Part shown: positions 793-62,848 of the stretch, piece by piece
Layout of the letters: every line of letters starts with the position of its first letter
Position numbering within the stretch: the first letter of the stretch is position 1
DNA from: an uncultured Methanoregulaceae archaeon
GTDB taxonomy: Archaea; Halobacteriota; Methanomicrobia; Methanomicrobiales; Methanospirillaceae
Assembly (NCBI GenBank): GCA_963841015.1
Contig: CAWJAX010000003.1
Span: forward strand, 416,001 to 480,000
Length of the DNA: 64,000 nucleotides
Reading direction: 5' to 3'
The notes under the pieces: generated by a model
Seen by the model: only the letters and a program-made list of their open reading frames with translations
What the model was told of the DNA's origin: nothing
Database searches by the model: none
Made by a program: the position numbers and the translations under genes

Positions 793-998
793 TCCCCTGC
801 AATAATTCTCTTTAAAGAGGAGGAGAAAATGCACAGGTACGAAGAAGACGGGGACTGTACCTGTCCCCCCATACCGCCCCTGCGCCTCGCGATGATGACG
901 GAGCACCTGTTCGGGGATTATCGCATCGGGGGAGCCACAGCGGCGGGGGTGAAACCCCTTGAGCGTATAGCTGGTAATTGAGCATTTTCTCCAGAGTC
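793..998 (-). mobile_element. MITE-like repeat copy 1 (module A only, one end degenerate)
   Basis: Ends in tttctccagagtc (986-998); interior matches module A of the copies at 18364 and 49284. Confidence 0.85.
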
Positions 999-6276: not shown

Positions 6277-6486
6277 ATGTCGAGCGATAGTAAACATGAA
6301 ATTCTAATCCGGCATGTTAATTGGAACTTCCAAAGAGCGAGGGTCTGGTTCTGGCCAATTGTTAGTGGCTTTACCATTTTTTTTGGGTTATTTGCCGGGG
6401 TAGAGGGAGCATTTGTTGGTTTTTTCTACGGGCTCGTTTGCGCGGGATTTCTTCTCTATGAAAGTTTACCTGTGAATAAAAGGTGA
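6277..6486 (+). CDS. Small 2-TM membrane protein, paralog of 25895-26140
   Basis: Shared WFWPIV...GAFxGFFYGLVCxGFLLxESL; GGTGA RBS. Confidence 0.75.
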   Translation: MSSDSKHEILIRHVNWNFQRARVWFWPIVSGFTIFFGLFAGVEGAFVGFFYGLVCAGFLLYESLPVNKR

Positions 6487-11903: not shown

Positions 11904-12232
11904 GGCTCTATTCAGTTCCTTTTGTTATACTTTGAAATACAAAGCACTGGTTCGATAGAGAAGGGAATCGTGCCGGTCTCCCCATTCCGCCCCTGAGCTG
12001 AGCGATAATGACGTAGTACCTGTTTGGGGGTTATCGTAATTGGGGAGCCACAGCGGCGGGGGTGAAACCCCCTTGAGCGTTTAGCTTATAATTGAGCATT
12101 TCTACAGATCAAAAAATTAAAAACTATCTTCCCCCGTGCCTCGGAAAGGCCCTGATGCGGGCGTCCATCATATGGGGACGATTTTGATGATTTGTGTGCG
12201 AACTGAATATTAATTTCTGTTTCTCCAGAGCT
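11904..12232 (-). mobile_element. MITE-like repeat copy 2 (partial module B plus module A with its own internal end)
   Basis: Ends tttctccagagct; internal tttctacagatc at 12099-12110; starts 1 bp after the pelota stop codon. Confidence 0.8.
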
Positions 12233-13498: not shown

Positions 13499-13998
13499 AG
13501 CTCTGGAGAAACAGGCATGAAAAGAGGGTTCGCACCCAAACCATGAAAATCGTAATGTATACGAGGGAACCCCGCCTCAGGGCCTCTCCGAGGCACGGCG
13601 GGCAGGAGTTTTTTTGAATTGTTTGTTCCAGATCCGCCGCCGCGGGGACGACCGTTTGCGGGGCGGCGGCAATCATCCTGAATGGAGGATTGTGAATAAA
13701 AATCTCGTATCATACCTGAATAGTATAATTTTCATAGGAAATCCCCCCGAGTTTTTTGAACCGGTGTGGAAATTACGAGCGTGACCCCCTCTCTCCCCCA
13801 GCGGGGGGCAGCCCATGGGGGCAAGCCCCCTTGACCCCCCCAAGAGCGGTTGGATTTTTCTTTTACGCTGCCGGGAATCCACAGCCATGGTCCACGGGGC
13901 GAGCCCCGACGAGGCGGTGAGGAGCCCGTGATCCCAACGCTATCCGATACAGGTCCCCTCTTTTAGTTTTTAAAAACGAGCACGCTTTCTACAGAGAA
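13499..13998 (+). mobile_element. MITE-like repeat copy 3 (module B + module C)
   Basis: ctctggagaaa at 13501 and tttctacagag ending at 13996; junction TTTCATAGGAAA at 13730-13741. Confidence 0.88.
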
Positions 13999-18119: not shown

Positions 18120-18310
18120 AGCCCTCGACAATTCATTATGAAATAACAGGATAAGAAAGAGGACGGGAGGACAGTACCTGTGCTGCCTGAACGATCCTGT
18201 GCTGATATCGATCATGGTACAGTACCTGGTCTCGTGATACGTATTTTGGAAACGGTGGGGAATAAACCCTAAAAAAAGGGTTCACTTTTTTTTAATCTGT
18301 CACCAGAGCC
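18120..18310 (-). repeat. Highly degenerate MITE-like copy 4 (module A relic)
   Basis: Ends agccctcgacaattc and caccagagcc resemble the family ends; ggacagtacctgt and cagtacctg resemble module A. Confidence 0.5.
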
Positions 18311-18363: not shown

Positions 18364-18570
18364 GACTCTGGAGAAATGCTCAATCACCAGCTAAACGTCA
18401 GGGGGGTTTCACCCTGCCGCTGTGGTTCCCCCGATGCGATAAATCCCTAATGGGTACTGCGTCATCATCACACAGCGCAGGGGCGATAAGGGAGGACAGG
18501 CTCATGTCCCCTCCTTCATCGTACGTGCATCCTGAATTTCACATCAAAGGAAAAGGAATTCTCCAGAGCC
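18364..18570 (+). mobile_element. MITE-like repeat copy 5 (module A only, intact)
   Basis: gactctggagaa...ttctccagagcc; flanks gttctttc and gttttttc (7/8 direct repeat). Confidence 0.92.
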
Positions 18571-21965: not shown

Positions 21966-22080
21966 TCCTCTGAAAATAATACTCCAATCAATAGTTATCA
22001 AGCTCCTGGGGGCTTTTTTTAAAGCCTCCACCCCCGCAGCTGTGGCGACCCCCATATCGCCATAGACCCGAATACAGGAG
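21966..22080 (+). repeat. Degenerate MITE-like copy 6 (5' half of module A)
   Basis: ctctgaaaa at 21968; cacccccgcagctgtggc (22029-22046) matches the module A core cacccccgccgctgtggc. Confidence 0.6.
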
Positions 22081-25894: not shown

Positions 25895-26140
25895 ATGCCC
25901 GGCACTTCGTCCTTTCGGTCATTTTTTACAAAAACTTCTGGCGGACAGAACGCAGGTGAGGTATCAGAAGATATTCGGGCGTTCAAACGAGCGAAGTTCT
26001 GGTTCTGGCCAATTGTTTTAAGCGTTACTATTTGTTTTGGGTTCTTTGCCGGAATACAGGGAGCATTTATTGGTTTTTTCTACGGACTTGTATGCGGGGG
26101 ATTTCTGCTCCATGAAAGTCTTCGGGTGAAAAAAAAGTGA
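25895..26140 (+). CDS. Small 2-TM membrane protein, paralog of 6277-6486
   Basis: Strong similarity to 6277-6486 over ~50 aa. Confidence 0.75.
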   Translation: MPGTSSFRSFFTKTSGGQNAGEVSEDIRAFKRAKFWFWPIVLSVTICFGFFAGIQGAFIGFFYGLVCGGFLLHESLRVKKK

Positions 26141-26498
26141 CTCTGGAGAAACAGACATGAATCTATGAGGTTCATTCCCGAACCATGTAAATCGTAATAT
26201 ATTCAATGGAACCCCGCCTCAGGGCCTCTTTAGAGGCACAGCGGGCAGGGAATTTTGTCACCAATCCGCCGCGGGGGCGACCATCCGGGGGCGGCGGCGA
26301 TCATCATAAATAGAGACGTGTGAAAAAAATTCGTACCATAACGGAATAGTTCAATTTTCAGGGGAAATGCTCAATCACAAGCTCTATGCTCAAGAGGTTT
26401 CACCCCCCACCCCTGTGGTTCCCCGGTGCGATAAACTCCGAACAGGTTATCCTGGCTGGAGAGATGGGGCAAAGGCGATAAAGATTTATAACAGAATC
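26139..26498 (+). mobile_element. MITE-like repeat copy 7 (module B + 5' half of A; right end unclear)
   Basis: gactctggagaaa overlaps the upstream TGA stop; junction TTTCAGGGGAAA at 26356-26367. Confidence 0.85.
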
Positions 26499-27352: not shown

Positions 27353-27639
27353 GCAAGACCATCCTTAGAACAACAGATTTACCCCTCTCAAATACTATCA
27401 GCAAAAGTATTATCAGATCTGAACAGGATTATCCTGTATGCCTCAGAGAACCCTCACTGCATGGCTTTGCCTACCTGCCGTGAGGTCACCTCCGAAAAAG
27501 AACCGGATGAAAATTTTTCGGGAAATTCCTGAACATGACGACAGATCCGGTAAAAAATATTCCCGGTCCAAATAGAATGAGAGAGAAAAATTAGGACAAT
27601 CCGATATGATACTGTTTTTTAAGGTTTTTTATTGTACTT

Positions 27640-30555: not shown

Positions 30556-30660
30556 CTTTATTCATTCCTCATGGGGGTGAATAAGGGTTTTGTCCTGCTG
30601 CTCAAAAAGAAATGCTTCTTCACGAGCTTTTTTTTATGTCTTCGCAACAAATGACTGGCA

Positions 30661-31156: not shown

Positions 31157-31372
31157 TGCTCTGGAGAAAAAGCATGAACGCATAATGTTCAAACCAGAAC
31201 CAAAAAATTGCCTGACGATGGACACCCGTCTTTGGCCTCTCAAAAGGCACGGCGGACAGAGATTTTTTTAATCGTTCGTCACCAATCCGCTGCGGGGACG
31301 TCCTTTCGGTGGTGACGCCATCTATCACACGGTTTTTTAGCCGAAATTCACCTGAGAATATTTCATGGACAT
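31157..31372 (+). mobile_element. Degenerate MITE-like copy 8 (module B only)
   Basis: gctctggagaaa; ggcctctcaaaaggcacggcgg; ends at junction-like tttcatggac (31361). Confidence 0.75.
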
Positions 31373-37187: not shown

Positions 37188-39928
37188 ATGCTCGAAGAAG
37201 AATACCAGCTGGAATATTTTAAGACCCAGGGAATGGTGCGCAAGGTCTGTAAAAGTTGCGGCTCAGCATTCTGGACACGTGACAGTTCCCGCGAAATATG
37301 CGGTGATGCTCCTTGTGAACCCTATAATTTTATCGGTAACCCGGTCTTCAACACTCATTCCCTTGACAGCATGCGTGAGGCTTACCTCTCCTTTTTTGAA
37401 AAGCATGGCCACACCCGCCTCGGGCGTTACCCGGTCGTTGCACGCTGGCGGGACGATATCTACCTCACTATCGCATCGATTGCTGATTTCCAGCCCTTTG
37501 TAACCGGGGGTATCGTTCCACCTCCGGCAAATCCGCTCACCATATCCCAGCCGTGCATCCGGCTCAATGATCTCGATTCAGTCGGCAGATCAGGGCGGCA
37601 CCTCACAACATTTGAGATGATGGCGCATCACGCTTTCAACACACCTGCAGAAGAGATCTACTGGAAAGACCGGACCGTGGAACTGTGCGACCAGTTCATC
37701 GCCTCCATCGGGGGGGACATCACCAAAGTCACGTATAAGGAGCACCCTTGGATCGGTGGCGGGAATGCAGGACCAAGTGTTGAAGTGCTTATTGGCGGAC
37801 TCGAGATTGCAACCCTGGTCTTCATGAGCCTCGGTCGTCAAAAGACTTCAGCACCGGGATATGACCTGAACGGGGAAATGTACTACCCGATGAAGCTCCG
37901 GATTGTCGATACGGGTTACGGGCTTGAACGACTTGTATGGGCATCCAAGGGTTCACCTACCATCTATGATGCAGTTTTCCCGGAGATGGTCAGCAGAGTA
38001 ATGAGTGCAGCCGGGCTCTCGCATATGCTGGACAACAAGGAGTTCACCAAGATCCTGGCTCTCAATGCAAAATTTGCCGGGCTCATGGACATCTCCGGCA
38101 CGAATCTGTTCCAGCTGCGCAAGAAAGTAGCATCAGCAATTGATATTTCCCCGGAAAAACTCGACAAGATGATCACCCCTATCGAGAAGGTATACGCGGT
38201 AGTTGATCACACCCGCTGTCTGGCGTACATGCTCGGCGATTCCATCGTTCCGTCCAATGTCCGGGAGGGCTACCTTGCCCGCCTTGTCATCCGGAGAACG
38301 CTGCGGATGATGAACGAACTTAAAATACAGGAACCGCTTGCCGATCTTGTCGAACAGCAGACGAGAATCATCGGCATAAATGCTTTTGAGCAGGATATTT
38401 CCATTGTCCGCGAGATTATTGACCGGGAGACCGAGAAATACGCATCCACGCTCGAACGTGGAACGAGGATAGTACAGAAAATTGCAAAATCCTACAAAGC
38501 CAAGAGCCAGCGTGTCCCGCTCTCCGAGATCATCACCCTCTACGATTCACACGGCATCCAGCCTGAAATGGTGAAGGATATTGCAACAAAAGAAGGTGCT
38601 GTTGTTGACCTTCCTGACAATTTCTATTCAATGGTTGCAGATATGCATTCCGAGTCGAAAAAAGAGGTTGTTGAGGACAAAACCTCGAAGTATCTGGCAC
38701 GTGTCGATGGACTCCCTCCGACAAAAAGCTCTTCTATGACCAGTCCTCTGACATCGAATTCGAGGCGGTCGTGCTTGACTTTTTTGATGGCTATGCGGTA
38801 ACCGACCAGACGCTCTTTTACCCTGAAGGTGGTGGCCAGCCGGCAGACACCGGTTCGCTGGTCAGTTCTGACAGTATGGTCCGGGTTGACGGGGTGGTAA
38901 AGATCGGGGAAGTGATACTCCACCACATCACCGGAGGAGTTCTCCGGCGTGGTGAACGGGTAAAAGGGATGGTAGATGAGGAGCGGAGATGGTCCCTGAT
39001 GCGCCATCATACCGCTACGCATATTCTTCTCCATGCTGCAAAAGAGGTCCTGGGAGTGCATATTCACCAGGCAGGAGCGCAGAAAGGAAGCGAAAGTTCC
39101 CGTATTGATATCCGGCACTTCAAGCATATCACCCCAGATGAACTCCGTAAAATTGAGACTGAGGCAAACCGGATGATCATGGCCAGCCAGCCGGTAGAGA
39201 TCTCGGTTGAGGACCGTACAAAAGCCGAGCAGAAATATGGTTTTTCCCTGTACCAGGGTGGCGTTCCCCCGGGGAAGGATATCCGGGTTGTGAAAGTCGC
39301 CGGTGATATCGAAGCCTGCGCCGGTACCCACTGCCGGAACACCGGTGAAGTCGGCGTAATCAAGATCATTCGGGTCGAGCATATCCAGGACGGTATTGAA
39401 CGCATCGAATTTTCCGCGGGTCTGGCCGCGATCTTCTATATGCAGCACCTTGAAAACATTGTTGCATCCTCGTCTGAAGTCCTCTCGGTGCAGCCGGATA
39501 ACCTCCCGTCAAGCGTGTCGCGGTTCTTCAATGAATGGAAGGATCAAAAGAAAGATATCGACCGGATGAGTGCCCGGCTGGTAGACCTTGAGATGCAGGC
39601 AATCGTTGCAGAATCAATAAGCGGTGTTTCGGTGGTCATCCGGCGTATCGATCTCCCCGCAAAAGAGCTCGCTGCACTCGCGACATCCATCTCAGAGAAA
39701 GGGGGCGTTGCTCTGATTGCCGGGGCCGGGGATACCGTGCGGGTAGTACTCACGTCAGGTGACTCGCGGGTGAACGCCGGCGAGATCATCAGCCAGGTCT
39801 GCAGCCTCCTCGGGGGAAAAGGTGGCGGTAAACCAGCGATGGCGCAGGGTGGCGGACCGGATGTAAACCAGCTTGACCTTGCCTTAAAGGTAGGACGCGA
39901 GCGGATAATCGCGGCGCTGCATGGCTGA
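37188..39928 (+). CDS. alaS: Alanine--tRNA ligase, -1 frameshift in the A5 run at 38723-38727
   Basis: Archaeal AlaRS motifs (IASIADFQP, SQPCIR, FYPEGGGQ, HTATH, CAGTH, GKGGG) split over two ORFs. Confidence 0.95.
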
Positions 39929-47080: not shown

Positions 47081-48019
47081 ATGGATTCTTTCAACAGCTC
47101 CGGCTATTACCGCCACCGGCATTTTGTATCGGACATCAGGGATACTCTCTTTTTGAGAATTCGCGACTATGGAGAGTTCCTGCTGTACAGTTCACTCTTC
47201 CTGGGTTCAGCTGCAGTCGGTATGGCTTATACTTCCTGCTTTATCCAGGGTATAACCTGGTCAGGCAACATCGCTGCCGTAATGTTCCTGATTGTATTCT
47301 CTGTGTATAATTTAAACCGGAAAACGGATGAAGCGGAAGACAGTCTTAACCATGAACGGCGTTTCCGTATAACCAAAAAATTCGAACGCCACTTTTTTAT
47401 TGCTGCACTTGGCGCATACATCATTGCACTCACCATTGCCGCATTTCACGGAATTGCCGCAGTCAGCGTGGTTATGATACCTCTCGTAAGTGGCATATTC
47501 TACAGCGTTCCTGTACTCCCGAAGGGGTGTGGATACCGGCGTTTAAAAGAAATTCCGGTGATGAAAAACTTCGTGGTCTCAATCTCATGGGCACTCGCGT
47601 TTTCGCTGGTGCCGGTGTATCTGGGTGCTTCTGAACCGGGTGCAGCATCCGGGGTTGTATTCCTGTTCATCTTCTGCTGGACATTTATTGCTTCCGTTCT
47701 TCCCGACATACGGGACCGGAGCGGAGATTCTGCAACCGGTGTCGCAACCATTCCGGTTCTTTTGGGAGTTGCACGAACCCGCGGCATCCTTACGATAATA
47801 AATTTTTCAGCGGGAGCCATTATCCTGCTCCTGGGAAGCCCCATTATTCCGATGCCGGCAATTGCCGTTATCCTCATTTCTCTTGTGTATTCCCAGATTT
47901 GCATCATTTCTATCGATCGAACAACCATGAATGATCTTCTCTGTGATGTCATTTCTGATGGCCAATTCCTGACTATTGGGGGGTTATGTCTCCTGATCAC
48001 ATCATTGTCTTACCTGTAA
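47081..48019 (+). CDS. UbiA family prenyltransferase
   Basis: NRKTDEAED and DIRDRSGD Asp-rich motifs; multiple TM. Confidence 0.88.
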   Translation: MDSFNSSGYYRHRHFVSDIRDTLFLRIRDYGEFLLYSSLFLGSAAVGMAYTSCFIQGITWSGNIAAVMFLIVFSVYNLNRKTDEAEDSLNHERRFRITKKFERHFFIAALGAYIIALTIAAFHGIAAVSVVMIPLVSGIFYSVPVLPKGCGYRRLKEIPVMKNFVVSISWALAFSLVPVYLGASEPGAASGVVFLFIFCWTFIASVLPDIRDRSGDSATGVATIPVLLGVARTRGILTIINFSAGAIILLLGSPIIPMPAIAVILISLVYSQICIISIDRTTMNDLLCDVISDGQFLTIGGLCLLITSLSYL

Positions 48020-48124
48020 CCCAAAAATAACATCAATTTTCCACGCTCATGAGATTACTTAGGCAGACCTGAGGGAGTCATAAACGAACAAAATATGTAC
48101 ATCTCAGAGATAATGTATTGCAGT

Positions 48125-48959
48125 ATGGATACCCTCAAAATTTATGAGCACCATAAACAACCGATCCATTCCCTATACAGTTCACGGCTGAAGATTCAGA
48201 TTCTGCTTACCTTACTCCACAATAAAGCATCCCTCGACCGGCTGCGTGAGGTCACCGGCAGCACGTCCCAGGCATTAATTCCCAAGATCCGTAACCTGGA
48301 AAAACAGGGACTTATTGAAGCGGTGAATTACGAGTACTGCCTTACTCCGCTTGGGGGGGTGGTTGCAGAGAATGTTGATGGGTTTGTCCAGCTCATCGGA
48401 GGGATCAGCCAGCATCATACATTCTTTAAAGACCATGATCTTACCGATCTTCCGGTGACCTTTCTTTCCCGGATCGGGGACCTGTATCATTCAGAACCTA
48501 AACATGATACAACGACCGATATGTTTTATGTTTATTCCCACTATCTCGAGATCCTGAAAGACGCCACGTTTATCCACGGGATTTCCTCGGTAGCAAGTCC
48601 AGGACTTGCCCAATTCATTGCAGAAAAAGTGGTCACCGGTATTCCGGTCGAACTTGTTGTAAATAATGAAGTTATCGGACTTTTAACAAAAGAGCCCTAT
48701 GCATCAAATATGCAGGCCCTTTTGGGGCATCCCAATTTTTCGGTCTGGGTAACCGGCGAGAGACTTCGTGTCGGGCTGACCGTCACCGATAAATACCTCT
48801 CACTGGGCCTTTTCAAGAAGGATTCCCACCTCTACGACAGTTCGTCTGATCTCTTCAGCAGCGATCTCCGTGCAGTTGAATGGGGAGAGGACCTTTTCCG
48901 GGTACTATAAAGAGCGTTCAATCAAGCTTGACATTGCCACATTATTCGAAGAAAAATAA
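48125..48959 (+). CDS. Winged-helix / DUF1724-type transcriptional regulator; +1 frameshift near 48900
   Basis: HTH N-terminus, VTDKYLSLGL...YD..A..WG; removing one G gives the ending FRYYKERS... Confidence 0.8.
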
Positions 48960-49039
48960 ACAAACCGGTTTTTCCCGGAATTATGAGTATTCCCGATTAA
49001 TATTCCCAATTTTTTTTAAAAGATTTTTTTTGATTTTGC

Positions 49040-49483
49040 TGCTCTGTAGAAACGAGCATGAACTGATCGGGTTCACACTCAAACCATGAAAATCTTATTT
49101 TATACGAAGGACTCCCGCATCAGGGCCTCTCCGAGGCACGGCGGGGCAGGGAGTTTTTTTTTAAATTTTTTGGTCATCGATCCGCCACGGGGGCGCCCCT
49201 TCGGGGGTGGCGGCATTCATCCTACCAGATGGATAGAGTGATAATAATTTCCGCATCATATCTGAATAATACAATTTTCATGGGAAATGCTCAATTACAT
49301 GCTAAACGCTCAAAGGGGTTTCACTCCCACCGCTGTGGCTCCCCCGATGCGATAACTCCCGATCAAGTGCTACGTCATCATCGCTCAGCGCAGGGGCGGC
49401 ATGGGCGGACAGGCACTGTCCCCTCCTTCATCCGTACCAGCATCTTGAATTTCATATCAAGGGAAAAGGAATTCTACAGAGTC
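49040..49483 (+). mobile_element. MITE-like repeat copy 9 (module B + module A, intact)
   Basis: ctctgtagaa/ttctacagag TIR; perfect 8-bp direct repeat gattttgc at 49032-49039 and 49484-49491. Confidence 0.95.
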
Positions 49484-49535
49484 GATTTTGCAGTATTTTT
49501 TTCCAGACACAGGGGAGTATCGTTGGGAATAAAAA

Positions 49536-51113
49536 TTACTCCTGCGAAAAAGTGGAGTTTTTTTTCCTGAATATCAGTACTTTACTATTTTCAAAAATTA
49601 AACGGTGATCATCAGAATTGGCAAATGATGAAATAATATATCCATTTTCAGGATTTTTGATGATATACACATGCGAATATCTGAAATTATAATTATTGGA
49701 AACATTCTCAAAACAGAAGGTATCTTCACAATTGCTTAATTCAAGGTCAGCTAACCATAACTGAGGCTTATTTGACCATTCATTTCCGTAAAATATATTG
49801 AGAGTTTTTCTGTGGGTTATAGCAGGAAACCAGTCTCCGATCCAAAACTGGTTTTTCTGTTCACTTGCAATAACATCTTTTACGATAAAAGTACTGGTAT
49901 TTTCAGTATTTTGTTGTATCCAGTACATAGCTTCGAAATGTCCTTTTTCGTCATCTTTCAGGGAAGAATACCTGGATTCAAAAAAATCCCGGTTTTGAAT
50001 GTAACTGCCTCCAAGAATCAGGACTACTAACAGAATAGTAAAAAATAATGGTAAAAGAGTTTTTTCTGGTGTTTCAGCATTCAGGGTAAACTTCAGAGCG
50101 GGAAATATCACTTTCATCAATCCAACAGAAAAAAGGATGATTACCAATATCAGAGGTATAATCACCACTCCATACCCCCCGCTTATTACCAATAAAACGA
50201 ATAAAACAGGTAAAAAAAATTCTTTTTTGGCGAGGTAATAAAAAAGGCCAAGTAAGCAGATTAATATTAAAGATAACTGATAATTATAAAAGTTAGTTAA
50301 ATAAATATTTATAAATATATTGAATACTGCAGTTGGTTGTCGTACCATAAACCCATTTATCAGAACATCAATTCCATGATTCCGGATAACGGTAAACCAC
50401 CAGGGAGAGCTGATTAACGTCGCGATAATCACAATAAACGCAACATCGAACACCGTTTTTTTCCGGGGATTGAGTAATGCAACGGCAAACAGGACCAGGG
50501 CATATGCAAAGGCACACCGGGGACTCGATACTATTAACAATCCAAAAAGAATTCCTATAAAAAAAATGAATGTATCATTCTTAAATTTCATCCATCGGAG
50601 AACAAGAATCAGACCAATAATAAAAAATAACGTACCAACACCATGAACGAGAAAGAGTCCCTGCGCAGAATAAGAAATCAGCGGGAGGTATAAAGCAAAA
50701 ATCAGTGTACTTATGAGGATTAAGGATTTTTCAGTGAATAATTCTTTTACTAAAAAATAAAACGCGAATATGCATACTATGCTGATTATCACAGGAATGT
50801 AAATAACAAGAGTCAATAACGGGACGGGGAACAGGGTGCTGCTCAATGCTAATACATAAAATATTAACGGGGGGTACGCAAAAGGGATTCCAGTTTCTGT
50901 ATAAAATGGAATATATGCCGGGTATGAAAAATTATTCTGAACAATAATTTCTGAAAAAAACAGATACAGTCCACCGTTATTGAGGGGGAGATTTGAGGAA
51001 AATCCCATAAATATATGGGGTAATAATCTTAAAAAAATCCCCAAAATTATGGAAGTTATAAGAACAAAATTAAAAAAAAATTTCGTTTGTATGAATGAAT
51101 AAAAATCTTTCAT
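49536..51113 (-). CDS. GT-C fold (ArnT/PMT/GT39-like) membrane glycosyltransferase, AT-rich
   Basis: LRL...GGLY...YPPL pattern, about 11 TM, soluble C-terminal domain. Confidence 0.75.
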   Translation of the reverse strand: MKDFYSFIQTKFFFNFVLITSIILGIFLRLLPHIFMGFSSNLPLNNGGLYLFFSEIIVQNNFSYPAYIPFYTETGIPFAYPPLIFYVLALSSTLFPVPLLTLVIYIPVIISIVCIFAFYFLVKELFTEKSLILISTLIFALYLPLISYSAQGLFLVHGVGTLFFIIGLILVLRWMKFKNDTFIFFIGILFGLLIVSSPRCAFAYALVLFAVALLNPRKKTVFDVAFIVIIATLISSPWWFTVIRNHGIDVLINGFMVRQPTAVFNIFINIYLTNFYNYQLSLILICLLGLFYYLAKKEFFLPVLFVLLVISGGYGVVIIPLILVIILFSVGLMKVIFPALKFTLNAETPEKTLLPLFFTILLVVLILGGSYIQNRDFFESRYSSLKDDEKGHFEAMYWIQQNTENTSTFIVKDVIASEQKNQFWIGDWFPAITHRKTLNIFYGNEWSNKPQLWLADLELSNCEDTFCFENVSNNYNFRYSHVYIIKNPENGYIISSFANSDDHRLIFENSKVLIFRKKNSTFSQE

Positions 51114-51456
51114 ATCTGTTCCATCTCTTTTTTTATGTAAAACTTACCTGCCGGAGGGGAAAATTTCAATAATTTTTTTATGGTTTAATCTGCGAAATTT
51201 TTAATAATTATACCGAACAACCGAAGGGAAAATTTTACTCCTTCTTTTTTTTCACTTGTATATACAGTAAGTTTCCTGATACGAATATGTTATGGAGAAG
51301 ATCAGACAATTCAATAAAGAAATTATGAGGAATAATTAAACGTAATTCTTTTGACATGACAGTAATGTTTGCTCCATCAGCAAAAGGAATGCATCCAGAA
51401 AATTCCTGAAATAAGATTAAGATTTAAAAGTAAGCTCCTAAAAAAGCAAGGCAGAG

Positions 51457-51528
51457 TGCGCCGACCGGGACTCGAACCCGGGTTTAGGCGTTGGCAACGC
51501 CTAGTGATAACCACTACACTATCGGCGC
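51457..51528 (-). tRNA. tRNA-Gly (GCC), no encoded CCA
   Basis: GCGCCGA/TCGGCGC acceptor stem, AGGCG-TTGCCAA-CGCCT anticodon arm, GGTTCGAGTCC. Confidence 0.96.
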
Positions 51529-51764
51529 AGATGTGCTCTAAAGTGTGAGCATTCAAACAATTTAAGGATATCGAACCCTTGGGCTCCGTCAGATATTCTT
51601 CCTTTGTCTCCTTCATACCATCATTTGTTCGGAAATGGCGGTCTGATCCTTCCATGATAACTGGTATTTCCGTAAGGATTCAAACCTGCACCTTGTGGTA
51701 AAGCAGGGAAAAATACACAACTATTCCAACATCTTAAAGTAACGCAATAGCCCTATCTATTACC

Positions 51765-52393
51765 TTGATGATCCCGCTCTTTGTGGATTGTTCGGACAGA
51801 CGCATTATTATATTCGGAGGAGGGGAGGTCGCATCCCGAAAAGCTGCGTATTTTTCCCGTGAGGCCGAGGTTCTGGTGATAAGCCGTTCATTCTCACACA
51901 AGATAAGCATCCTTCCGGTAAAACGCCGGATGCTGGACGCGGGAAAGGTTTCTGATGAGGAACTCAGGGAGATTGTTGACGGGGCCTTTCTGGTTGTCGG
52001 GGCATTATCAGATCCTGCCCAGAATAATCGGATTAAAAATCTCTGCGGGGCACAGGATATCCTGTTCAATAACGCGGATGGTGAAGCAGGAGATGTGATT
52101 ATTCCCTCGGTAACCAGGGGGGAAAATTACCAGATTGCGATCAGTACGGGGGGAACAGCCCGGCAGTATCCCGGTTTATACGGGAACACCTCGAATCAGA
52201 GTTCCCTGCCCTTGATGACATGATAGCATTGCAGCGTGACCTGCGGGCGCAGCTGAAACAGACTGTATCTTCCCAGTCCCGGCGGAATGCGATTCTGCGG
52301 GAAGTGTTACAGGATCGTGAGATCTGGAAAACCCTGAAAACTGATCCTGTACGGGCTTGCCAGCAGGCAAAAGAGAGGTACCTGCATGAATGA
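51765..52393 (+). CDS. sirC: Precorrin-2 dehydrogenase (SirC/CysG N-terminal type); -1 frameshift in the G6 run at 52148-52153
   Basis: MIPLF, GGGEVASRK, AISTGG; adding one base gives NSPAVSRFIRE... Confidence 0.88.
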
Positions 52394-53666
52394 ACCTGCA
52401 GCAGTTCCGATCGCGATTGCCGGTGTAAGCCATCACACGGCAAATGTTACTGCCCTCGAAACATTCCGCTTTCCAGACGAACCCGAATTCCTCAATAAAG
52501 CCGGTCAACGGTTCAAAGGGGTTCTCCTGCTCCAGACATGTAACCGTGTCGAGTTGATCGTTGAAGGAGATGCAGATGATCTCAGGGATTTCCTTACTAA
52601 ACAGGGAAGACAGGATTTCTTCATGCACAGCGGGAAAGGGGCACTTTGCCATCTCTTCAGCCTTGCATCCGGTATAGACTCGATGATTGTTGGTGAAGAC
52701 CAGATCCTCGGGCAGCTGAAAAAATCTCTTGCCGATGCACAGGAAGCCGGAACTGCAAGCAACATCCTCGAATTCTGCATCAACAAAGCAGTACACGTGG
52801 GGATCGAAGTGCGTAAACGCACCATGATCAACCGTGGGGCAGTCTCCGTGGGGTCTGCGGCGGTACTGCTTGCTGAATCCCAGATCGGGAGTCTTGAAGG
52901 CAAACATATCCTCGTCGTAGGAAGTGGAGAAATGGGGATGCTGGTCGCCCAGGCACTTGCAGCAAAGGACTTAACAGCCATGTATGTGGCAAACCGTACC
53001 TACGGCCGGGCAGTTGTCCTTGCTGACAAAATCGGGGGAAAGGCTGTGCGGCTGTCCGAACTCTACCATTATATCACGCTGTCAGATGTTGTGATCTCCT
53101 GCACATCTGCCCCCCACCCGGTCATCCATACAAAAGAGCTGGAGCTGGCGATGAAAAACCGGTGCTGGCCGGTTGAAGGACATCCCCGCCCACTGATACT
53201 GATTGATATCGCCCAGCCCCGGGATATCGAGGACGGGGCATCGACCATCGATGGTATCCGCCTTTTTTCTATCGATAACCTTCGCACGATAAATGAGCAG
53301 ACCATGAGCACACGGAAAGCAGAGGCTGAGCGGGCTCGTGAGTTCGTGGATATGGAACTCGAAGTTTTCCTCCGTCACCTCAACCGGAAATCTGCTGATG
53401 ACCTGCTCGCCGCACTGCACACATGGGCTGAAGCCGTGCGGATCCGTGAACGGGATCGGGCACTCGCCCGATTTGGTTGTCCCGACACAAAAACGGCAGA
53501 GATTGTTGATGACCTGACCCGGGTTCTTGCAAAAAAACTTCTTACCGATGCAACCTTTTCTATCCGTGAGAGTGCTGAGGAGGGAGAACTTGCAGCTGCA
53601 AAGGCACTGGTAAAAGCAATCATGCAGGGAGACAGGATCGGGATCGAACTATGCCGCAGGGAATAA
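52386..53666 (+). CDS. hemA: Glutamyl-tRNA reductase
   Basis: TCNRVE, GEDQILGQ, GSGEMG, DIAQPRDI. Confidence 0.96.
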   Translation: MNEPAAVPIAIAGVSHHTANVTALETFRFPDEPEFLNKAGQRFKGVLLLQTCNRVELIVEGDADDLRDFLTKQGRQDFFMHSGKGALCHLFSLASGIDSMIVGEDQILGQLKKSLADAQEAGTASNILEFCINKAVHVGIEVRKRTMINRGAVSVGSAAVLLAESQIGSLEGKHILVVGSGEMGMLVAQALAAKDLTAMYVANRTYGRAVVLADKIGGKAVRLSELYHYITLSDVVISCTSAPHPVIHTKELELAMKNRCWPVEGHPRPLILIDIAQPRDIEDGASTIDGIRLFSIDNLRTINEQTMSTRKAEAERAREFVDMELEVFLRHLNRKSADDLLAALHTWAEAVRIRERDRALARFGCPDTKTAEIVDDLTRVLAKKLLTDATFSIRESAEEGELAAAKALVKAIMQGDRIGIELCRRE

Positions 53667-53862
53667 TCAGCTTCCGCGTTTTCTCATCTTAAAATCCGGT
53701 ATGACGGGATAGTCCCATCATCAGAAAAACTCTTCACCTGATACGGAATGCTTCGCGATGAGTGACTATTTTTGACCCGGTGCAGACCGGATCCTCATCA
53801 AAAAAGACGGGTACTAATCCCTTACACAACTCGGGAGTGAAGGGAATATACTGCATATTGTG

Positions 53863-54504
53863 TCAGGGAATCTTAGCATACGCTTTTTGTGCAAGGCTGG
53901 CAAGAGTTGCATAGTCAGCCCCTTCACCGGTCATACGGAGCACCTCAAGGATGTCACCTTTCGAAAAGATAATCTCGACAAAGTCCTGCTGAACCGTTCC
54001 CTCACCCGAACCGGGACCCGGCAGATTCCCGGAGACGGGTTCCGGAATTATGATGGTGTGTGCAGTTCCTGAGAAAGCCTGGCTGTAGCTGCCGAGAGCC
54101 GGGGAAGAAAGGTTAGAAAATATCATAGTATTGTCGGATCGTTCCTGTTTTTCTGCAAGTGCAGCTATGGCGGGAATATTTTTTGCAGGATAACGGGTGA
54201 CAGTCTGAAGAATCTCAATCTGGCCGGAAATTCCCTCAGGGGGACGGGTAAAACGCACGACATATCCCTGCTGCCAGCCGAGATCCCGTGCGAGCTTACT
54301 TACTTCAGGGGAGTTTTTCACCCTGCTCTCGCGAAGGGTAAAATTTTGTGGGATCTCTGAAGGGGTCAGGACCAGCGATTCAAGGGTTATCTGTTCAGGA
54401 GTTGATGGGGCGGGGGCCGCTGTCCCGGCAAGCCCCGTACATCCCGTTGCAAGAACGAGTGAACAGACAAGAATTGCAATGATCAAACCCCGGGAACTGC
54501 TCAT
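53863..54504 (-). CDS. Predicted lipoprotein
   Basis: ATGC lipobox; A..AYAKI C-terminus. Confidence 0.75.
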   Translation of the reverse strand: MSSSRGLIIAILVCSLVLATGCTGLAGTAAPAPSTPEQITLESLVLTPSEIPQNFTLRESRVKNSPEVSKLARDLGWQQGYVVRFTRPPEGISGQIEILQTVTRYPAKNIPAIAALAEKQERSDNTMIFSNLSSPALGSYSQAFSGTAHTIIIPEPVSGNLPGPGSGEGTVQQDFVEIIFSKGDILEVLRMTGEGADYATLASLAQKAYAKIP

Positions 54505-54601
54505 TTGTTATGATCATTTAGGTTACTACAAAAATATGTCCATTTTGTTTCCTGCAGTTTGTTGCTCCGATTATCTCCGCATTAAGAACAGACTATTTCT
54601 G

Positions 54602-54932
54602 TGTTCTGGAGAAATGAGCATAAACTGATCGGGTTCACACACAAACCATGAAAATCGTAATGTATATGTTGGAACCCCGCTTCAGGGCCTCTTTAGAGGC
54701 ACGGCGGGCAGGGGTTTTTTTTGAATTGTTTGTTCCAGATCCACCGCGGGGGCGACCCTTCGGGGGCGGTGGCGATCATCGTACATGGAGGTGTGTTAAA
54801 AAAAACTCGTATCATAACTGAATAGTTCGATTTTCATGGGAAATGCTCAATTACATGCTAAACGCTCAAGGGGGTTTCACCCCCGCCGCTTGTTTGCCTG
54901 AGTCCGTGACTAATGTGCGTTTCTACAGAGCC
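54602..54932 (+). mobile_element. MITE-like repeat copy 10 (module B + truncated A + short tail)
   Basis: ttctggagaaa...ttctacagagcc; perfect 8-bp direct repeat tatttctg at 54594-54601 and 54933-54940. Confidence 0.95.
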
Positions 54933-55186
54933 TATTTCTGTTCCTGCTCTGAGCCCCTGATGCAATAGTATGCTTTTTTGAGTCCCAGGACTGGTTTGAG
55001 CGGACAAGCCGGGCAGACGCATCCCTTTTTATCAAAGGTGCAGGTCGGGCTTTTTCCCGTTACACAGAATAAGAGTTCATCTCCAGCCCGCATGCACTCA
55101 TTATATGTCGGGCACGGTTCACAGATACACCTGGCCCGGTTCTGTTCATTGTTGTTGATGTCGTTTTGCATATTTTTTAGCTCCAT
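54932..55186 (-). CDS. Cys-rich DUF2769-like protein
   Basis: CxCxxCPTY..C...LFC..GKS.C.....CxCxxC...YYC. Confidence 0.85.
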   Translation of the reverse strand: MELKNMQNDINNNEQNRARCICEPCPTYNECMRAGDELLFCVTGKSPTCTFDKKGCVCPACPLKPVLGLKKAYYCIRGSEQEQK

Positions 55187-55279
55187 GCTCCGGCATTCAC
55201 TCCCCCAGGATTAAGGATGCGCAGTTCCGGAGAGTTAGATCAATAAGTAGATTATCGCGGGCTCCTTGATAATTAAATC

Positions 55280-56014
55280 ATGCCTGCACCACTGGTTGGA
55301 CGAAAATTTGGTGTCACGGTCATCCCACCGCTGGACCCCGAAAAACGAAAGGGAATCCGCGTGCTCGGGCTCTCGGGTTCGAGCCGGCAGCAACCCGGGA
55401 TGAGTAAATCCGAGCGTCTCCTCCTCCGAGCGCTCGAGGTGTACAAAGAATATGGTTGCAAGACCACGTTTCTCAGGTTAAAAGATCTCAACATCCACGA
55501 TTGCGAGGGCAACTATTCTGAAAATCCTGCTTACTGTACGTATCCATGCCAAAGCTCGCTGAAGTACGAAGATGACCAGATGCAACTGGTGTATGACGCA
55601 GTACTCGCGTGCGACATCCTGATCCTCGCAACCCCAATCCGCTGGAATAACCACTCCGCGATAGTCCAGAAATTTGTGGAGCGGATGAATGCCATTGAGA
55701 ACCAGTACTCATGGTTCGGGAACCGGATGATCGATAATAAAGTCGCCGCCATGATCATTGTGGGCCATGTTGACGGTGTGCAGCATGTGGCAGGTAATCT
55801 CATGAATTTTTTTTCGTGGCTCGGGTTTCACACCCCGGAGGTTGCTATTGCATCCTGGGTCGGCGAGAATGATGAGGATACCACCAAAGACTGGGATCAG
55901 ATCGAGAGTAACCGGTACACAAAAGAGGACCTCAGCAACCTGATCACAAGCGCGTTGAGGCTTGCGTATGCACTCAAGCACCATACCGCAGAAGAAACCG
56001 GAGGAAGTGTCTAA
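55280..56014 (+). CDS. Flavodoxin-like / NADPH-dependent FMN reductase family protein
   Basis: GLSGSSR, CEG...C..PC, DDQM, ATPIRW. Confidence 0.85.
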   Translation: MPAPLVGRKFGVTVIPPLDPEKRKGIRVLGLSGSSRQQPGMSKSERLLLRALEVYKEYGCKTTFLRLKDLNIHDCEGNYSENPAYCTYPCQSSLKYEDDQMQLVYDAVLACDILILATPIRWNNHSAIVQKFVERMNAIENQYSWFGNRMIDNKVAAMIIVGHVDGVQHVAGNLMNFFSWLGFHTPEVAIASWVGENDEDTTKDWDQIESNRYTKEDLSNLITSALRLAYALKHHTAEETGGSV

Positions 56015-56842: not shown

Positions 56843-57008
56843 TCGTGTTTTTTTGACGTGTGCCTCAAACACCAGAGATGAAAAAAAGGGTATAGTGCCA
56901 TTTTAACTACCAACTCGTAAAGGAAATAACGAGAGAAAAAACAATCAGAAAAGTGTTCTAAAAATTCAGGATGAAAAAGTGTTCCTGTTCAAAGGACCAA
57001 AAACGCAG

Positions 57009-57056
57009 ACGCTCAAAGGGGCTTCGCCCCGCCACTATGGTGCCCCGGTTGTGATG
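57009..57056 (+). repeat. Fragment of MITE module A (copy 11)
   Basis: acgctcaaaggggcttcgccccgccactatggtgccccggttgtgat vs acgctcaaaggggtttcactcccaccgctgtggctcccccgatgcgat in copy 9. Confidence 0.65.
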
Positions 57057-57181
57057 GCGTTATATACCCCATGATCAGGTATACCGGTAATACAGATGAA
57101 TCGCCAATGTGTTTGTCGTGGTGAGAACGGGCATACACATTAATCCGGAGGCATCGGATTGCACATCGGGTCAGAGGAATA

Positions 57182-57637: not shown

Positions 57638-58095
57638 TGGCTACCCCTCCGGACTACCATGATTTTTTTATTGGATTAACACATTAAAAACCGTTATAAC
57701 AAATTAAGGTGTCGGAAATTCGTTTTACCAGCGGGACTATTCGATCCTTGCTGACGTATGAAGGTGTCCCTGCAATCAGTCGGATATGATGCATCAAAAG
57801 GAACTGTTCCAATTTTTTAAGGACAATTGTGTTCTTCCACATTTCATTCCCTATATTTCCTGATACATCATGTCACGGTTCAATGGGCGTTTTGCAGAGT
57901 AAGCTACGCTTGCACTATGATGCAAAAAACACGTGCTTTTAATACTTCCAAAAAAGATATTGGTTGACATTCTGTCGCATTTTGAGGAGAATAAGGTTAT
58001 TTGATAACACCGTTGACCAGGTGGGAAAATAGCCATAAATACAATGGATTTAAGAAAAAGGTACACAATCATACCCCAGGAGATGGAATCAGAAC

Positions 58096-62417: not shown

Positions 62418-62848
62418 GGCTCCGTAGAATTCCTGTTCTATCGATATGAAATTCAAGATGCTGGTACTATGACAGAGGGGACAGTGCCTCTTCCCCCATA
62501 CCGACCCTGCACTGAGCGATGATGACGTTGCATCTGTTCGGAATTTATCGCATCGGGGGAGCCACAGCGCAGGGGTGAAACCGCCTTGAGCGTATGCTTG
62601 CAATTGAGCATTTCCCATGGAAATTGAACTATTCAGGTAGGATGCGAGATTTTTTTCACACCCCTTCATGTACGACGATCACCTCCGCCGAAGGGTTGCC
62701 CCCAGCAGCGGATCAGGAACAAACAATTCAAAAAAACCCCTGCCCGCCGTGCCTCAGAGAGACCATGAGGAGGGGTTCCATCGTATACAGTACGATTTTC
62801 ATGGTTCGGGTGTAACCCCCAGAAATTCATGTCTGTTTCTCCAGAGTC
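62418..62848 (-). mobile_element. MITE-like repeat copy 12 (module B + module A)
   Basis: ggctccgtagaa...tttctccagagtc; flanks aatttttt and attttttt (7/8); junction at 62611-62622. Confidence 0.92.

Follow-up and report, generated by a model that had tools for sequence, protein, structure and literature searches.

A family of modular miniature elements in a Methanoregulaceae archaeon and its probable mobilisation in trans by a resident IS5-family insertion sequence

The repeat located at positions 49040-49483 of a 64,000-nucleotide stretch of DNA from an uncultured Methanoregulaceae archaeon (C3:416001-480000, contig CAWJAX010000003.1; the whole stretch is called the window below) raises the question as to what kind of element it is and which enzyme has spread it. 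The genome in question (G000, assembly GCA_963841015.1) consists of 2.28 Mb in 5 contigs with a GC content of ~0.49 and is 94% complete; the named nearest relatives of its transposase and of one housekeeping protein are all Methanoregula sp. An earlier reading of the window based on its letters, referred to here as the original prediction, described an abundant, non-autonomous family of MITEs (miniature inverted-repeat transposable elements) of mixed ages, bounded by terminal inverted repeats (TIRs) and 8-bp duplications and mobilised in trans, and assigned it to an IS1595 (ISPna2 group) or IS6 parent. The first part of this description is supported by the present analysis, and the parent proves to be a different one: the MITEs are very probably moved in trans by the transposase of a resident insertion sequence (IS) belonging to the IS5 family.

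The motif GRCTCTGKAGAA was found 12 times in the window when up to one mismatch was allowed, versus the 0.83 occurrences expected from dinucleotide-preserving shuffles (n=100), none of which reached 12. The TIRs of the 49040 copy consist of TGCTCTGTAGAA on one side and the reverse of GACTCTGTAGAA on the other. A repeat search of the window showed internal blocks common to the 12 sites listed in the original prediction, and profiles drawn from both halves of the 49040 copy gave 11 significant loci (Table 1); 11 of the 12 sites are thereby upheld, and the twelfth, at 21966, appears by eye to be decayed and was not significant. The 12-nt TIRs predicted at 49040-49483 and the perfect 8-bp flanks predicted there (gattttgc) and at 54602-54932 (tatttctg) were confirmed, as were the 7/8 flanks at 18364-18570 and 62418-62848. 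The copies range as expected from intact to decayed, showing 49% to 96% identity to their consensus.

When the 444-bp copy was compared with the whole genome by BLASTN, 126 high-scoring segment pairs were obtained, including the self match (100%), many of which span only positions 245-442 of the query. The copy was split into module A (positions 1-244) and module B (positions 233-444), and iterated nhmmer profiles (E <=1e-3) matched the genome 63 times in the case of module A and 135 times in that of module B. After merging, there are 158 repeat loci, totalling 34,072 bp or 1.5% of the genome, which corresponds to 69 loci per Mb, or one per 14 kb; the previous estimate of one copy per ~5 kb holds for the window and does not hold genome-wide. 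The MITEs are small, carry no transposase gene and occur in two size forms, one of ~209 bp (module B) and one of ~440 bp (module A fused to module B). Module B stands alone at 97 loci, A is followed by B at 26, A is alone or truncated at 25, A is followed by inverted B at 4, and other combinations occur at 6. Both TIRs are recognisable (<=3 mismatches each) at 51 of the 158 loci. The number of loci per 100 kb amounts to 2 on contig C5 and 8-10 on C2, C3 and C4, and the 30-kb contig C1 carries 6 loci, the equivalent of 20 per 100 kb. The repeat was matched in 24/24 genomes of the same genus versus 2/16 from other genera of the order, these counts being drawn from kin rather than from independent samples. 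Contig C5 also contains a MITE-free stretch of 350 kb (~150-500 kb), part of C3 (~500-800 kb) carries about one locus per 50 kb, and the end of C2 carries 12-13 per 50 kb.

Among the 51 two-ended elements, the flanks are perfect (8/8) in 12 cases and match at 7/8 or better in 22. Upon permuting the flank pairs (5000 times), the mean number of perfect pairs was 0.42 (maximum 4) and that of pairs reaching at least 7/8 was 1.84 (maximum 8); when the right flank was slid by -6 to +12 bases, at most two perfect pairs were obtained, at offsets of +/-1 within A/T runs. These permutation and sliding controls argue against a sequence preference in the DNA around the elements as the cause of the flank identity. 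The 8-bp target duplication is real, and an excess of such duplications is present genome-wide. The 54602 copy is not one of the 12 elements automatically scored as perfect: a false right end gave it a score of 3/8 in the automated pairing, and by eye it ends at 54932 with a perfect tatttctg.

Pairing terminal repeats throughout the genome yielded three ISs of 1,007 bp, all of which lie outside the window (Table 1) and which are the only elements in the genome where these ends surround a transposase gene. Each of them contains one long open reading frame (ORF) of ~300 aa without any internal stop. The protein matches Pfam DDE_Tnp_1 (PF01609) at 6.6e-24 over residues 112-281 and the NCBIfam model transpos_IS5_2 (NF033579) with 217.4 bits (cut-off 140), and is far under the cut-offs of the IS1182, IS4, IS982 and ISNCY models. 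The residues D117, D190, E246, Y239, R242 and K253 are invariant among 15 aligned transposases including that of ISHvo2; we take D117, D190 and E246 to be the DDE residues, and Y239, R242, E246 and K253 to be the Y-2-R-3-E-6-K signature. Two of the IS copies differ at only one of 1,007 bases, which indicates that the IS moved recently. The third copy shares 87% identity with these two.

The assignment to an IS1595 (ISPna2 group) or IS6 element, from which the family would have been derived and by which it would have been mobilised, was based on the GGCTCTG start and the 8-bp duplication, which these families have in common with the present elements and which fit the GGCnnTG pattern given in the original prediction. 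However, six-frame searches of the 94%-complete genome gave no match to the IS1595 domain PF12762 or to the IS6 domain PF13610 (DDE_Tnp_IS240), although these domains were matched in Haloferax volcanii and in five control genomes, respectively; the IS protein likewise showed no match to the DDE domain of either family. The three elements that do carry these ends encode an IS5-family protein, and among 80 related loci of IS5 type from public genomes, 61 have the same TIR. Since the TIR-bounded ISs encode an IS5 protein and no IS1595 or IS6 domain was found, the likeness of the MITE ends to those of ISPna2 or IS6 is superficial; a parent from either of these families is largely refuted and hardly credible.

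The MITEs and the IS are alike over the terminal ~17 nt only, in left- and right-specific versions. The left end of the IS, GGCTTTGTAGAAATGCT, corresponds to the left end of module B, and its right end, GGCTTTGTAGAATTCCT, corresponds to the right end of module B, including positions 13-17, where left and right ends differ. Because the match is end-specific, it identifies the IS as the likely source of the transposase moving the MITEs. No similarity was found between the interior of the IS and that of the MITEs, and since only the ends match, the MITE is not a simple deletion derivative of this IS.

These features suggest the following mechanism. The ends of the MITEs, ~17 bp in length, reproduce either the left end of the IS, GGCTYTGTAGAAATGCT, or its right end, GGCTYTGTAGAATTCCT; the ~300-aa DDE transposase would bind these ends and cut at the outermost base, and the element would then be joined to a target site opened by cuts staggered by 8 bp, the repair of which would leave the 8-bp duplication. 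Since the MITEs have the same ends as the IS and no gene, they would be moved in trans. The binding, the cleavage chemistry and the view that the amplification was driven by the resident IS and not by one of its close relatives are inferred.

Module B (~209 bp) has two ends, and module A (~240 bp) has the left end only; it would become mobile once fused to a block providing a second, inverted end, which may be module B in either orientation or another module A. In the genomes, module A always ends in TTTTCAYGGGAA, which replaces the 12-nt terminal repeat of the next block, and the blocks following it are indeed B forward, B reversed or another A; in the window, the right end of the 13499-13745 copy is the constant inner end TTTTCATAGGAA. 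Other short modules come after module A in the related genome G007, where the resulting units measure 313-385 bp; inverted A/A pairs (552-553 bp) are present there as well, and both these composites and the A/A pairs carry 8-bp duplications. A right TIR lies within ~210 nt in 12 of the 17 G007 copies of module A examined, 11 of which could be scored: six rows are perfect (five distinct elements), three match at 7/8, and two at 6/8 (one element). One G007 junction consists of TTTTCTGGAGAA, which is much nearer to a true terminal repeat. The junction at the end of module A may therefore be a crippled terminal repeat in direct orientation retained at the point of fusion, in which case the two blocks would move only together, as one unit. 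This construction from interchangeable one- and two-ended modules is the only unusual feature of the family. An inverted repeat, CCATGAAAAT...ATTTTCATGG, is also present inside module A and might mark a separate nested element.

The IS belongs to a clade which extends beyond this genome. In a large protein collection, 1,577 relatives of its protein were found at E <=1e-3, measuring 292-456 aa, and 187 stretches of species-representative genomes encode a relative, of which 80 were kept for the counts given here. The kept loci are mostly from Methanoregula/Methanoregulaceae bins (75-89% identity) and from Methanosarcinaceae (51-59%). A pair of GGCTCTGTAGAA-like repeats 950-1100 bp apart was present at the 61 loci mentioned above, and in the 58 loci with both flanks, the 8-bp duplication is perfect in 30 and matches at 7/8 in 4. 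The right end could be placed in 16 copies (the three resident ISs plus 13 related loci), and in 12 of these the stop of the ORF is situated 4-216 bases outside the element; the right repeat and the flank therefore encode the tail of the protein. This accounts for the scatter of the protein lengths. As a result of this read-through across the right TIR, the C-terminal tail is copy-specific and measures 1 to ~90 residues.

The nearest annotated plasmid copy is an IS on pMETHO01 of Methanomethylovorans hollandica, annotated 'IS5 family transposase', the transposase of which is 56.5% identical to the present one; it measures 1,001 bp, has GGCTCTGTAGAA-type ends as here, and its 8-bp flank repeat matches at 7/8. 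The transposase of ISHvo2 of Haloferax volcanii is 33.5% identical. In comparison with other methanogen and haloarchaeal IS5 elements, the partner IS falls in a distinct clade, in which 75-89% identity is reached only within Methanoregulaceae, and the ORF also differs in that, in 12 of the 16 copies, it continues past the right end of the element into the flanking DNA. In ISfinder, IS5 members making 8-bp duplications are placed in an ISH1 subgroup, to which the present IS may belong; none of the plasmid matches listed bears the name ISH1, and the literature searched offered no ISH1 reference for comparison.

Public Methanoregula and Methanomicrobiales bins contain a second IS subfamily, which measures ~997 bp and has TGCTCTGTAGAA ends and 8-bp duplications. 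Its transposase is 47-52% identical to the resident one, and the search with NF033579 gave no copy of it in this genome, the only matches being the three resident ISs, all of the first type.

Whether the MITEs have moved in the recent history of the lineage can be judged from the closest relative, G017, whose DNA is about 86% identical to that of G000 and which has a 49-kb contig colinear with positions 24138-64000 of the window (84-95% identity). At the site of the 54602-54932 copy, G017 has a single tatttctg followed by the matching right flank, which makes this a clean empty site; conversely, at three sites which are empty in G000, G017 carries a MITE between more or less diverged 8-mers (Table 1). 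Four sites thus differ in occupancy, of which one gives a clean and three give less clean empty/filled pairs. The colinear part of the window holds six copies, of which at most one (62418) may be common to both species. The 49040, 26139 and 31157 sites cannot be aligned on one side in G017 and are thus not clean empty sites. Since occupancy differs at nearly every site compared, movement must have continued after the two species split. The 62418-62848 copy and its possible counterpart (G017:C17:10831-11324) have module A in the same orientation and module B inverted in G017, and ~5 kb of extra DNA adjoins the latter copy.

These findings can be set against another explanation, according to which the MITEs are fossils amplified by a related IS5-type element, such as the TGCTCTGTAGAA-ended subfamily, and are now immobile, the resident IS merely sharing conserved ends with them. 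This would fit the nearest-neighbour identity among the MITE copies, which peaks at 96% with a median of 80-83%, the fact that many MITE left ends in the genome begin with TGCTCTG, as in the second subfamily, and the perfect duplications restricted to 12 of the 51 two-ended copies. It would also fit the fact that no empty allele was seen in metagenome contigs. Thirteen public sequencing runs hold at least half of the sampled words of 48000-55500, and in four of them (X1, X2, X5 and X15) the word depth over the two repeats is ~10-60 times that over the flanks; the right junction at 49483 is spanned by contigs of X1 and the junction at 54932 by contigs of X2, and the joints listed in the run contigs link different repeat copies. 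No allele precisely lacking the 49040-49483 or the 54602-54932 copy was seen in the contigs of these four runs, a result which says nothing about the absence of such alleles, as contigs drop rare variants. However, the right ends of the MITEs match the resident IS through position 17, including the asymmetric TTCCT, no copy of the second subfamily exists here, and occupancy differs at nearly every site between species that are ~86% identical. We therefore regard the fossil origin as unlikely.

Several further points, along with the missing empty alleles just mentioned, weigh against mobilisation of the MITEs by the resident IS. Transposition of the MITEs is deduced here from sequence comparison, and their current activity is hypothetical. 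Since only ~17 nt are shared at each end, descent of the MITEs from the IS is conjectural. The second subfamily, present in other Methanoregula genomes, could also have acted on the MITEs. One or both ends are unrecognisable at 107 of the 158 loci, and 18 of the 51 two-ended elements have flanks matching at 5/8 or less, the 54602 copy being counted there although it is perfect by eye. None of the eight copies in the genome consisting of module A only has a right TIR or a duplication; these are probably truncated units. Lastly, no pair of MITEs is more than 96% identical, yet two of the ISs are 99.9% identical, and the last burst of the MITEs may thus be older than the last jump of the IS.

The family might also be thought to consist of structured RNA genes, or of regulatory or terminator elements resembling repetitive extragenic palindromic (REP) sequences, spread by recombination. 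Module A does fold better than its shuffles (z -2.98 on the plus strand and -2.25 on the minus strand) and contains two GC-rich hairpins, the sequence of which is conserved across species, one of them being followed by a T run in G000. Spaces between convergent genes hold more than their share of the loci (52 of the 141 intergenic ones versus 23% of the intergenic length), and 20 of the 141 lie between divergent genes, which account for 24% of this length. In addition, the repeats have a higher word depth than their flanks in one RNA-library run. On the other hand, the TIRs, the 8-bp duplications, the IS with the same ends and the clean empty sites all point to transposition. Module B folds no better than its shuffles (z 0.56 and -0.26), and RNAalifold gave essentially no consensus structure with 37 copies of module A and 66 of module B. 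For three hairpins drawn from the consensus of module A, 64-83% of the cells pair. Most changes affect only one side of a stem, and the frequency of double changes (11-18 cells) does not exceed that obtained with slid partners, so that no excess of compensatory changes is seen. Conservation of the T run does not extend to the other species, and no orientation bias with respect to the neighbouring genes was observed (18 same and 12 opposite for module A; 26 same and 31 opposite for module B). A permissive Rfam scan of 49000-49520 gave no match even at E 1. This explanation is accordingly highly improbable. The placement of the loci, with 9.7% of the MITE bases inside genes in a crude ORF-based gene set where genes cover 76-84% of the four large contigs and 59% of the 30-kb C1, fits selection against promoter disruption as well as it fits any function. 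At gathering thresholds, Rfam gave only two tRNAs in the window. The RNA-library run mentioned above is the metatranscriptome X15, in which the word depth is 40-142 over the repeats (49004-49505 and 54526-55027) and 0-10 over the flanks; this depth could reflect either the transcription of many copies or DNA carry-over.

Within the framework of mobilisation by the resident IS5 element, the hairpins of module A leave room for a more speculative idea. Module A might be a half-MITE whose hairpin core has been kept for its activity, either as an aid to transposition (a site for a host factor or an accessory site for the transposase) or as an element adopted by the host (a transcript-end or RNA-stability element between convergent genes). 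The hairpins persist throughout the genus in hundreds of copies, and module A would recombine with any block carrying a second repeat, be it B forward, B reversed, another A or the other modules present in G007. Taking the two variants together, we consider it quite doubtful.

Methanoregula, a main producer of methane in peat and wetlands, is known almost exclusively through metagenome bins. Archaeal MITEs of the same kind as those described here include SM1-SM4 of Sulfolobus. According to PMC7002104, archaeal MITEs are short, gene-less, TIR-bounded elements which are assigned to an IS by the homology of their ends and moved in trans; the MITEHsal series of Halobacterium and ISH2 resemble the present system in their TIRs, target duplications and in-trans mobilisation. 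The present family differs from the described ones in its host (Methanomicrobiales), its sequence and its partner IS, as well as in its interchangeable one- and two-ended modules, present in all 24 congeners searched. A census of 8,220 archaeal genomes published in 2024 (PMC11602168) gives maxima of 251 MITEs in a genome and of 100-146 per Mb, and 88.9% of its archaeal MITEs are intergenic. The MITEs of this census are similar to ours in their genus-level specificity and their location, ~90% of the MITE bases being intergenic here; with its 158 loci, the present genome ranks high and sets no record, so that the words 'very dense for an archaeon' in the original prediction were an overstatement. 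Methanoregula is not named in the main text of the census, and no description of a Methanoregula MITE was found in the literature, ISfinder and the supplementary catalogue of PMC11602168, which may list these elements, lying outside this statement. In a 2026 survey (PMC13343696), one Methanoregula genome is noted for its very high content of ISs.

The family is therefore an ordinary kind of mobile DNA, for which no earlier description was found in this lineage and whose parent family is corrected to IS5; it leaves the understanding of the MITE mechanism unchanged. Its practical bearing is of several kinds. A repeat present in ~150 copies per genome breaks short-read assemblies and is liable to be misread as RNA genes or as another IS family. 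It also marks strain-level differences, as nearly all sites compared between two species differ in occupancy. Naming the ~1-kb IS5-type partner with its 8-bp stagger provides a rule for annotating both the IS and the MITEs, and the compact methanogen transposase with its 17-bp ends is a candidate genetic tool.

Table 1. Coordinates of the repeat copies, target sites and partner ISs (positions are those of the window unless a contig is named; the profile match column gives significant matches in the window)
Feature	Location	Strand	Profile match	Remarks
Intact long MITE, module A + module B	49040-49483	+	49043-49480	444 bp; 12-nt TIR at both ends
Module A part of the 49040 copy	49040-~49283			
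Module B part of the 49040 copy	~49284-49483			
Target duplication gattttgc, left copy	49032-49039			8 bp
Target duplication gattttgc, right copy	49484-49491			8 bp
Long MITE, module B internally deleted	54602-54932	+	54605-54891	331 bp; perfect duplication
Target duplication tatttctg of the 54602 copy	54594-54601 and 54933-54940			
Long MITE, order B-A	62418-62848	-	62421-62845	431 bp; flanks 7/8
Short MITE, module B alone	18364-18570	+	18370-18567	207 bp; two TIRs; flanks 7/8
Module B copy	793-998	-	804-989	good TIR at 987-998; opposite end decayed
Module B + partial module A	11904-12232	-	11914-12229	good TIR at 12221-12232; duplication gone
Module A only	13499-13745	+	13502-13734	left TIR; no right TIR, no duplication
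Module B, decayed	18120-18290	-	18136-18284	E 4.4e-12
Module A + truncated module B	26139-26455	+	26142-26451	
Truncated module A	31157-31335	+	31160-31330	left TIR intact
Module B fragment, short, decayed	57002-57090	+	57002-57086	weak, E 1.4e-5
Possible heavily decayed module B	21966-22080	+		by eye; above E 1e-3 in the profile search
Empty target in G000	30617-30624			G017: 441-bp A+B MITE between diverged 8-mers (6/8)
Empty target in G000	57828-57835			G017: module B MITE, duplication 7/8
Empty target in G000	27383-27390			G017: module B MITE, duplication 6/8
IS, first copy	C2:353343-354349			1,007 bp; perfect 8-bp duplication
IS, second copy	C3:194783-195789			1,007 bp; perfect 8-bp duplication
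IS, third copy	C5:79673-80679			1,007 bp; perfect 8-bp duplication

Some other features of the window were observed. The gene encoding alanine--tRNA ligase is split into a 537-aa ORF (37188-38801) and a 385-aa ORF (38771-39928) in a different frame, and the protein measures 913 aa in relatives showing up to 99% identity; the frameshift near 38771-38801 is either an assembly indel or the mark of a broken gene. The segment 48959-51417 (2.46 kb), which comprises the 49040 MITE and a 525-aa ORF (49536-51113, minus strand) and lies near a tRNA gene (51457-51528), is replaced in G017 by ~760 bp of unrelated sequence, which makes it a variable spot beside a tRNA. The 26139 MITE sits directly on the stop codon of the neighbouring gene, and the 3' ends of two paralogous genes (6328-6486 and 25982-26138) are 79% identical, the similarity stopping at the first bases of this copy.

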